A DNA stretch of 38,295 bases from Candidatus Aenigmatarchaeota archaeon (GTDB lineage: Archaea > Aenigmatarchaeota > Aenigmatarchaeia > CG10238-14 > SCSR01): NCBI GenBank assembly GCA_039091335.1, contig JAWCME010000003.1:1-38295 (forward strand), given 5' to 3'. Below are positions 6,001 through 9,000 of this stretch, one piece after another (within the stretch, counting starts at the first letter, position 1; each line of letters opens with the position of its first letter). The position numbers were made by a program.

Positions 6001-9000
6001 TTTTGCAGAGAAGAAAAAAATAGTTTTATTTAGCAATTTTCTAAAAAATTTGTTTGAAGTAAAGGATTTTTCTGAATTTTTGAATAAAATCTTAGAAGAA
6101 GTAAATGTTTTTAGAATTTTTACAAAGCCACCAAAAAAAGAAGTTAGTAAGGATGCGCTAGTTTTTAAACTAAAACCAAAAGTTAGAGATGTTTTGAAAA
6201 GAATAAATGAAAGTTTTCTTGAAACCTTTAAATTTGCAAAAGTTTTTAGGAAAAAAGAAATTAAACGGGTTGGTCTGGATTATGAGCTTGAAGACGGAGA
6301 TATCATTGAAGTTCATGCTTAGTTTTTTTTAAACATGCAATAAGTCTTTATGGGCTCGGCGGGATTTGAACCCGCGACCATTCCCCCTTATCGAACGGGT
6401 TGCTTCCTGGTATCAAAGCTTTTAATAGATAAAAGCTTCAGCTAGTTCCGCTGCTTTCGGCTACATTTCATCTACCATGCTGAGCTACGAGCCCTCATTT
6501 TTTTTAGCAATTCCTTACATTTATCTTTTATCTTTTTATCGACTTTAATAAAAGCTATTCCTTTGTTTGGCAAACCGTAAACTATATTTGTTCCTATTCT
6601 TGATTTTAATGCAAAAGCAAAAGTTGCTAAATCTTCTTCACCCCTCACAAATATTTTAAACCTTCCTTTATCATCTAAAACTTTACTAACAACTTCGAGT
6701 AATTTTTTAGATATACATCTAGGAGGATTTTTAACCACAATTTTTTTAGCTTTATATTTTTCAATTTTTTTCAGCATTTTTTTACTTGTTTTTTTCCTTC
6801 CAATAATCCCATCATAAACTAAAATGTCTGGCTTAATTCCTAAAACTAATGCTTCATAACTTACCATATCACCAACAACTACAAGTTTGCCAGAAAATTC
6901 GATTTTGCTTAAAGAATTAAGTACTTTACCATAAATTTTTCTAAATTCTGGTTTTATTTTTTCGGTCAAAACTAAATCCAACTTTACTACCTTTTTCTAT
7001 TTCTTCTAAAATTGTGGGTTTGCCAAGAATACTTTTTTATTTTTGAGCTTTTTCCATAGCCACAAGCGCTACAAACTTTACTTTTTACATTAAAGCTACG
7101 CCTTCCACACCTTTTGTGTTTAGCTAAACTAATCTACACAAGGTGTGGACAGGTTTCCTTCTTTTACCCATTGAAGGCGTTCCTTTTGCCATGTTTTCCA
7201 CTAACTACTTTTTATATTTGATTTTTATAATAGTTTTGCATGTTTAAAATTTCAAATTCCTTTAAGATTTTATTCGCTCTTTCCAGGTCATCTTTTGTAT
7301 CTATATCGAAAAATTCGTTTGTAGGCATAGATATTGGTACAAACACCTTATTCTTGGATTTTTCAATTATTTCATTTAGATCTTTTTTCGGACCACAATT
7401 TTCAAAAATCTTCTTTTTATATATTCCACACAGCGTTTCATACTTATTTAATCCCCAAAAGTAGAGTATACAATCTACCATCTCTTTCGTCCTAGGTAAG
7501 AGCTCTCTTATTGTCCTATCCTGAACAAAAGGCATGTCGCACGCCAAAAGAAAGAAGTAATCGTTTTTAATATGTTTTATCCCTTCCTTTATTCCTGCTA
7601 CAGGAGAAAAAACCCTTTTGTTATCGGCAATAACCTTTACATTTTTCGAATATTTTCTAACTTCTTCTATAACTTTTTCTCTTTCTTCTCTATTTTTTAC
7701 AACAACCACAATATCAGAAAAAAAATTTTTTGCAACAAACAAAGAATATGCTATTAATGCTTTTTTGTCAAGAAGTACTAAAGCCTTTTCATTTTTCATC
7801 CCCCTTATTTTACCACCCGCGAGAATTATACAGCTAACCCCCATTAAATCTTTTTTTGTAAATTAAATGCTATATTCTTTTCTTTTGAAATTTCTTGTTT
7901 TAACGTTAACAAATAAATTTTTCTGTATTAAAAAGTATTCCATGGAATGGCAGGAAATTTTGGTAAGATATGGAGAAATATTCCTAAAATCGGAGTTTGT
8001 CAGAAGAGAATATGAAAGAAGGTTGGTGGAGAATATAAAACATGCGATTAAAAAAAAGAATATAGAATTTGAGATTTATAGGGAAAGGGGAAGGATTTTT
8101 ATTAAAACAAGAAAAATTTCTCCTGTTTGCAAAATCCTTAGAAAAATTTTTGGGATAATTTCTTTTTCTCCCTGCGTGCATTTGAAAACGGATAAAAAAG
8201 AGGAAATAGTTGATTTTTTTAAAAACAATTTCAATAGCTTTATAAAAAAAGGAAAGACTTTTGCCGTTTCCGTTAAAAGAGTTGGTAAACAAAATTACTC
8301 GAGTCAAGAATTGGCTAGAGATATAGGAAATGTTATTAAAAGAAGGGTTAATCTTTCAAATCCAGATGTAAAGATTTTTGTAGAAATAAGGGACGGAAAT
8401 ACTTACATATACACAAGAAAAATTAGGGGTTTGGGTGGAATGCCTGTTGGAAGTTCAGAAAAGGCTGTAGCTTTAATCTCTGGTGGCATAGACTCTCCTG
8501 TTGCCTCTTGGTTCGCAATGAAGAGGGGATGCAAAGTTGTTTTTGTTCATTTCCATAGCTTTCCACTTGTTTCAAGAAAAAGTATAGAAAAGACTAAAGA
8601 ATTGGTAAGGGTTTTGAATGAATATCAAGGGAGGAGTAAGCTTTATTTAATTCCTTTCTCAGAGATTCAGAGTAGGATAAAAACATCTGTGCCAGCAAAG
8701 TATAGAATAATATTCTATAGAAGGATGATGTTTAAAATTGCAGAATTAATTTCAAAGAAAGAAGGAGCAAAATCTTTAGTTACAGGCGAAAGCCTTGGTC
8801 AAGTTTCTTCACAGACATTGAGCAATATTGCTGTTATAGAAGAGGCAACAAAAATCCCTATATTGAGGCCATTAATCGGGATGGACAAATCTGAAATAAT
8901 TGAAATTGCAAAGAAAATAAAAACTTATGAAATATCAATAAGACCGCAAGAGGATTGTTGTACCCTATTTGTTCCAAAACACCCAACAACCAGGGCAAAA

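Follow-up and report, generated by a model that had tools for sequence, protein, structure and literature searches.

An intron in the cbf5 pre-mRNA of Crenarchaeota was reportedly described by Watanabe in 2002. Among eukaryotes, HAC1/XBP1 splicing serves as a stress switch in which the RNA is cut by IRE1 and, in animals, rejoined by RtcB-type ligation. The part of PMC13149111 on which we draw also names this unconventional splicing. In the portions of PMC7714728 and PMC10485636 used here, cbf5 is the only spliced archaeal coding sequence named, with HVO_1309 of Haloferax volcanii as a 5'-UTR case, and the same portion of the second source, a 2023 review, expects that more such archaeal introns exist (PMC10485636). 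The published cbf5 intron was inferred to be ancestral to two orders, according to the relevant sections of Yokobori 2009 (PMC2738675) and of the review (PMC10485636). With regard to the BHB (bulge-helix-bulge) motif itself, the cleavage reaction is set out in a section of PMC12397907, by which the second nucleotide of the bulge attacks the phosphate of the third, so that the cut falls after the second; relaxed forms of the motif are, by the corresponding sections of PMC12397907 and PMC10485636, cut by enzymes of broad specificity. In our literature search, outside which subscription journals lie, no publication turned up that deals with an intron in the eL37 gene, or in any other ribosomal-protein gene, of an archaeon.

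The locus described here is an eL37 gene, from a tiny archaeon of hot springs, interrupted by a short insert. It resembles the crenarchaeal cbf5 intron, as far as the partial accounts of the latter go, in having a relaxed BHB-like motif within coding sequence, in causing gene callers to miss or truncate the gene, and in a patchy distribution with gain and loss. It differs in the gene concerned (eL37), in the phylum (a DPANN archaeon of the Aenigmatarchaeota class) and in its rarity (3 of 371 genomes, each time in a single species with intron-less congeners); moreover, the cbf5 intron is described, in those same accounts, as being excised by the tRNA-splicing endonuclease (EndA) together with a ligase, whereas for eL37 we infer the splicing. 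HAC1/XBP1 splicing likewise takes a short, frame-changing intron out of an mRNA without the spliceosome, a protein endonuclease doing the cutting and an RNA ligase the joining, but endonuclease and recognition motif are different. HVO_1309 is comparable, by the part of PMC7714728 that we use, as a case in which EndA has an mRNA, rather than a tRNA or rRNA, for its substrate; its intron lies in an untranslated leader, whereas that of eL37 breaks the reading frame inside the zinc knuckle. For reasons given below we are confident that the eL37 mRNA contains a genuine relaxed-BHB intron that is very probably spliced, and a working eL37 gene of the main organism in the bin is the best explanation of the split locus.

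The window, by which we mean the whole stretch of 38,295 nucleotides analysed, belongs to contig C23 of a metagenome bin (G000) of 570 kb, 87% complete and with 1.1% contamination. As an earlier note on this DNA had described, it contains an uncalled eL37 gene broken by a 20-nt insert. The gene lies on the minus strand at 7192..6987, and PF01907 matches it in two collinear pieces around the insert. A Pfam search of the window matches model positions 2-19 at 7127-7192 (minus strand, E 1.1e-6) and 20-50 at 6990-7112 (minus strand, E 3.5e-12), and a six-frame PF01907 search of the whole bin returns the C23 pieces at model 2-19 and 19-50 plus an intact eL37 on contig C8. Exon 1 (7134..7192, minus) runs from an ATG at 7192 through 19 codons plus the AG of Arg codon 20, and exon 2 (6987..7113, minus) supplies the last base of codon 20, 41 further codons and a TAG stop at 6989-6987. 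Between them lies the intron (7114..7133, minus; alternatively 7113-7132), which begins with A, ends with AA, contains an in-frame TAG and is inserted after codon 19 plus two bases, between the cysteines of the first CxxC. Translation from the ATG at 7192 gives the N-terminus of eL37 and then meets a stop after 22 codons. Excision of 7133..7114, recomputed from the coordinates, gives the in-frame product of 61 codons that the note had claimed, with the CRRC zinc knuckle regained and the four-cysteine pattern CxxC...CxxC present in the joined exons. Compared with the C8 eL37, exon 1 shows 75% identity over residues 1-20 and exon 2 shows 78% over residues 20-55. No further copy of the 20-nt insert was found in G000 at up to 3 mismatches. 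An A/T-rich, TATA-like box, AATATAAAAAG, can be read from the sequence at 7206..7216 (minus), 14-24 nt upstream of the ATG, and could possibly be the promoter of a leaderless or short-leader eL37 mRNA.

Since the source is a metagenome bin, here of 29 contigs, an assembly or sequencing artefact has to be considered. Five runs were found, with no RNA run among them that contains the locus, and independent DNA contigs from three of them, X1 (6805-7401), X2 (6941-7501) and X4 (7091-7324), run across the insert without any joint and show 0 differences there, in agreement with the earlier note; run X3 gave no cover over the eL37 gene. Inserts at the same site in two unrelated assemblies, described below, also argue against an artefact, whose probability we regard as negligible.

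The fold of the RNA from 7155 to 7098 (58 nt) has a free energy of -24.8 kcal/mol and a z-score of -4.68, and none of 200 shuffles was equally stable, compared with a z of -4.22 that the note had given for a range of its own. The whole splicing motif (7105..7148, minus) is recovered both in the minimum free energy (MFE) fold and in the centroid fold, and the same architecture is present in two further genomes, G285 and G265 (see below). An outer helix of 8-9 bp pairs 7140/7141-7148 with 7105-7112/7113; a central helix of 4 bp, GUGU/ACAC, pairs exon with intron (7136-7139 with 7116-7119); the 5' bulge is AGA (3 nt, 7133-7135), and the inner hairpin, of 5 bp, occupies 7120-7132, all on the minus strand. 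At the 3' site the MFE fold pairs U7140 and leaves a 2-nt bulge, while the centroid fold forms a 1x3 internal loop in which the unpaired A's at 7113-7115 (minus) lie opposite U7140. The outer helix is made from the codons of His-Thr-Leu and Arg-Cys-Gly, so that structure and coding constrain the same bases.

With 3 nt facing 1 nt at its 3' site, the motif has to be called a relaxed rather than a strict BHB, and neither in G000 nor in G285 or G265 does this splice site show the clean 3-nt bulge that characterizes the strict hBHBh' form. An endonuclease of the strict type might fail to cut such a 3' site. Set two bases 3' of either strand in the central helix, the cuts of the published rule fall between 7134 and 7133 and between 7114 and 7113, which is the only register of the rule that keeps the reading frame. 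As the first intron base and the first base of exon 2 are both A, the pair of cuts may shift by one base 3' at both ends without any change in the product.

The intact eL37 on C8 bears on a different explanation, namely that a 20-bp insertion has inactivated the C23 gene, leaving a pseudogene in an organism that uses the C8 copy or has no eL37 at all. Were C8 part of one genome with C23, the organism could dispense with the split copy; an absence of L37e from some DPANN archaea is reported in the part of PMC5498576 used here; and the gene is split in no more than 3 of 371 genomes of the class. On C8, however, eL37 has an Sm gene and ABC transporter genes as neighbours and, together with these, mirrors C23 at 63-89% identity, and 17 ORF pairs between small contigs and syntenic stretches of large contigs show 58-88% identity. 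On account of this mirroring and of the syntenic pairs we take C8 to be part of a second, related organism, to which, judging from these comparisons, the intact eL37 looks as if it belongs, as the earlier note had proposed; by GC and tetranucleotide composition C8 is not separable from C23. Further evidence against a pseudogene comes from other genomes and from the exons themselves.

To follow the split through related genomes, PF01907 searches covered the family (70 genomes including G000), the order (118 genomes) and the class (371 genomes); in the class screen the per-genome table was checked for weak best scores, after which five genomes were searched again. The earlier note had reported no relative with the same intron, and this does not hold: among the 370 other class genomes two, G285 and G265, are split at the identical base, with compensatory changes in the helices. 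The eL37 of G285 (contig C27) is matched in pieces at model 1-19 and 19-52 around an insert of 31 nt, and that of G265 (contig C42) in pieces at model 1-23 and 18-52 around one of 37 nt. Both inserts follow the same AG of the same Arg codon as in G000. None of the three lengths (20, 31 and 37 nt) is divisible by 3, and an in-frame stop is found in each insert. A PF01907 search found no second eL37 match in G285 or in G265 (91% complete), so that a split at this very site occurs twice where an intact copy is lacking, contrary to what inactivation would lead one to expect.

The MFE fold of G285 is the same motif, and its 1x3 loop, C/AAA, is unambiguous (z -3.36, 0 of 200 shuffles equally stable). 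That of G265 differs locally from the BHB form, with energies of -28.1 against -24.2 for the BHB (z -4.96, 0 of 200). The central helix reads GUGU/ACAC in G000, AUGU/GCAU in G285 and GUGC/GCAC in G265; 12 of its 12 alignment cells pair, and 2 of its 4 pairs are altered on both sides. Directly 3' of it lies the 5' bulge, AGA in G000 and G285 and AGU in G265, and the loop at the 3' site is 1x3 in G285 but 2x4 in G265, where 4 nt face 2 nt. For G000, G285 and G265 respectively, the outer helix has 9, 9 and 7 bp and the inner helix 5, 9 and 13 bp; past their first pairs the inner hairpins have little in common. Over the alignment of the three sequences 94.4% of the cells pair and 7 of 18 pairs are altered on both sides, figures to be read as those of a small sample of three sequences from which the tested structure was itself derived; 2 of 500 shuffles attain that pairing, and structures slid along the alignment pair 30-44% of the cells.

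The exons show no sign of decay. Joined in silico, they give products of 61, 61 and 63 codons in G000, G285 and G265, all with CRRC. In 37 intron-less genes 13 columns reach a conservation of 90% or more, and all three products keep 13 of these 13. The G000 product is 74-78% identical to members of its family and that of G265 is 92% identical to the eL37 of its intron-less congener G266, while the split genes are only 48-59% identical to one another. Each product is therefore closest to intron-less genes of its own lineage, which indicates that the gene was vertically inherited and did not spread along with the intron. Between G265 and G266 the gene has 29 synonymous codon differences and 5 residue differences, indicating purifying selection. 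Exons without further damage, covarying helices and purifying selection are not what a dead gene should show, nor is a frame-restoring BHB expected three times over from random insertion, and we consider a pseudogene improbable.

The nine exon positions that form the outer helix pair in 9, 8 and 7 cases in the split genes of G000, G285 and G265, against a mean of 5.2 and a maximum of 8 across the 37 intron-less genes (p = 0.003 by a one-sided rank test, the kin among these genes not being independent).

A stable hairpin at the site with a stop codon soon after it would also suit translational bypass or frameshifting, in which the ribosome hops over the insert in the style of phage T4 gene 60. 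Yet the take-off and landing codons do not match, being AGA/AAA in G000 and G285 and AGU/AAA in G265, and a hop in G265 would yield CSRC instead of the invariant CRRC. Furthermore, the features that are conserved are those of a BHB, the 4-bp helix with cuts two bases beyond it. Bypass is thus very improbable as the explanation of the locus, and splicing of the eL37 mRNA remains the reading that we prefer.

The distribution of the intron is narrow. Within the family, 51 of the 69 other genomes have one unbroken eL37 match above the cut-off, a count that reproduces that of the earlier note, and the PF01907 searches found no other split eL37 among the 70 genomes of the family or the 118 of the order of G000. 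G265 and G285 belong to a single order of 91 genomes, which is not that of G000, and within it to different families, f35 and f38, where the eL37 gene is split in 1 of 5 and 1 of 47 genomes, respectively; the other species in the genus of G265, and likewise the other one in that of G285, is without the insert. Four further weak or partial matches were rejected as split genes: that of G045 comes from the same GC-rich gene overlapping at a contig end, that of G057 is unrelated sequence, and those of G064 and G065, from a reading of their ORFs, are eS31-type zinc ribbons adjoining S24e.

A pattern built from the three cases matches 3 of the 371 class genomes, with 0 matches for reversed-pattern controls. 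A GTDB-wide scan with a somewhat broader pattern returned 71 stretches, of which 2 are eL37 by tblastn and agree with G285 and G265 in sequence and in their place on the contig; the remaining 69, 7 of them archaeal, are chance matches, the expected chance number being roughly 67. Being narrow and built from three known cases, the pattern is blind to variants with other codons, and further eL37 intron variants may exist beyond it. A metagenome search with the neighbouring DUF359 protein found one distant locus (31% identity), where eL37 is absent.

As for the splicing machinery, RtcB is present in G000. Neither a PF01974 search, with E values admitted up to 10, nor tblastn with the EndA of relatives found EndA in this bin, which is 87% complete. 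EndA was found in 30 of the 30 relatives searched and also in G265 and G285, which each have one gene of about 190 aa and one two-domain gene of about 400 aa. The tRNA genes of the window carry inserts, for instance one of about 10 nt in the gene at 26386-26468 and two in the stretch 24121-24257, so the organism requires a splicing enzyme, and its EndA gene presumably sits in the unassembled 13% of the genome. These tRNA mini-introns are short, like the eL37 intron, and from a reading of the sequence the insert of the tRNA gene at 26386-26468 ends with AA, next to an A, before the anticodon stem, as at the 3' site of eL37; the host RNA of the eL37 intron, in contrast, is a messenger.

A scan of G000 for BHB motifs gave 3784 structural matches, 105 of which passed an ORF filter, with eL37 third in rank. 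Among the 22 matches whose outer helix measures 8 bp or more, 14 loci were tested by Pfam or ORF analysis for other mRNA introns, and no collinear split of a single family was found. Candidates such as those at L3 and L4 and at NrdG and NrdD turned out to be neighbouring, separate genes; those at RFC, a helicase and a beta-CASP gene were spurious short upstream exons of intact genes; and three loci had no family match on either piece. The cbf5 intron is absent from G000 and G265, whose PF01509 pieces share a single open frame, respectively 314 aa and 292 aa long; in G285 cbf5 gave no match. The metK family (PF01941) was not found in G000, G265 or G285.

According to the mechanism that we propose, the outer helix of 8-9 bp would arise in the pre-mRNA where exon 1 ends and exon 2 starts, the final bases of exon 1, GUGU, would find their partner in an ACAC close to the intron's 3' end, and the remainder of the intron would form the small hairpin. 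EndA would then cut between AG and A at 7134/7133 and between AA and A at 7114/7113, and RtcB would join the exons into a 61-codon mRNA with its CRRC zinc knuckle. Cleavage by EndA and the ensuing ligation are thus the probable fate of the eL37 pre-mRNA. Unspliced, the mRNA gives only a 22-residue peptide, so that synthesis of eL37 depends on splicing.

Such a dependence could also be exploited, and the cut by EndA might act mainly as a regulatory or decay switch, inefficient or conditional splicing tying eL37 output to splicing capacity. An early in-frame stop in all three introns, which in G000 ends the unspliced message after so short a peptide, would fit this, and the 5'-UTR intron of Haloferax seems to matter for expression, by the part of PMC7714728 used here. 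However, G265 and G285 have no other eL37 gene, and productive splicing must therefore be at least substantial; a role that is mainly regulatory appears quite improbable to us next to splicing that yields eL37.

With regard to origin, we tentatively suggest, at somewhat less than even weight, that this nucleotide of eL37 was invaded independently at least 2-3 times, a hairpin built from codons offering a ready-made outer helix and hence a proto-splice site. On this suggestion the conserved codons of His-Thr/Ile...Cys-Arg-Arg-Cys-Gly would already form a hairpin, CCACA...UGUGG, and a small hairpin landing in its loop would become a substrate of EndA and be tolerated. If this were true, eL37 would be a natural test case for de novo protein-spliced introns in mRNAs, and it would hint that small ribosomal proteins seemingly missing from DPANN bins are sometimes genes hidden by introns.

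A second coding gene would mean that splicing of mRNA by the tRNA machinery is not confined to one gene. The gene in question encodes a core ribosomal protein, belongs to a different superphylum from the cbf5 case and offers three occupied copies of one site, among which the changes are compensatory. Since a split eL37 is invisible to gene callers, it is scored as absent, and both estimates of completeness and reports of ribosomal-protein loss in DPANN archaea can err as a result. Finally, recurrence of the intron at one base, beside intron-less congeners, provides a dated, small system in which the gain and loss of introns can be followed.

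Among the tRNA genes of the window, the one at 26386-26468 (+), detected by ARAGORN, is interrupted in its anticodon loop by about 10 additional nt. The label given by ARAGORN varies between runs, Arg(tcg) in one case and Leu(caa) in the other. Inspection of the sequence shows a CGC anticodon and a G3:U70 pair in the acceptor stem, and because of these two features the gene looks like a tRNA-Ala. The 3' border of this mini-intron reads AA|A, as in the 20-nt intron of the eL37 gene.

Other tRNA genes of the same stretch are also interrupted. A gene of 137 nt at 24121-24257 (-) contains two inserts, one in the region of the D-loop and one in the anticodon loop, and another of 100 nt at 25026-25125 (-) has about 24 extra bases. 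ARAGORN also reports a tRNA at 15464-15552 (-), to which it assigns an ambiguous two-base anticodon and for which no Rfam match was obtained at the gathering score.

Directly downstream of the DUF359 gene, at 6340-6470 (-), we found a perfect T-arm and, next to it on the 3' side, a 3' acceptor strand (GCGGGTTCAAATCCCGC CGAGCCC A). Neither ARAGORN nor Rfam returned a tRNA here, and no matching 5' acceptor strand was seen within about 120 nt. This element is possibly a tRNA that is split or has been heavily interrupted. The syntenic place on C8, another contig of the bin, is occupied by a tRNA-Leu with a long insert.

We compared the contigs of the bin with each other (C3, C4, C7, C8, C9, C10 and C13 versus C1, C12, C23 and C25-C27). 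Syntenic stretches of the large contigs recur on small ones with 58-88% protein identity, and since the synteny is duplicated in this way the bin seems to include fragments from a second, related organism, despite a contamination score of 1.1%.

In two other genomes the eL37 match ends early, covering model positions 2-38 of Pfam PF01907 in one (G094:C13:18803-18913) and 2-42 in the other (G030:C10:7235-7360), which could reflect a truncation, a frameshift or an insert elsewhere in the gene.

Finally, the EndA gene complement differs between relatives. Genomes of the other order encode a pair of EndA-family proteins, with lengths of about 190 aa and, for the one with two domains, about 400 aa (loci L135 and L137 in G265, L136 and L138 in G285), whereas in the organism's own family (f1; loci L041 and L042) the sole EndA found in the 18 genomes searched is a gene of about 190-236 aa. 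The type of EndA that handles relaxed motifs may therefore differ between lineages.
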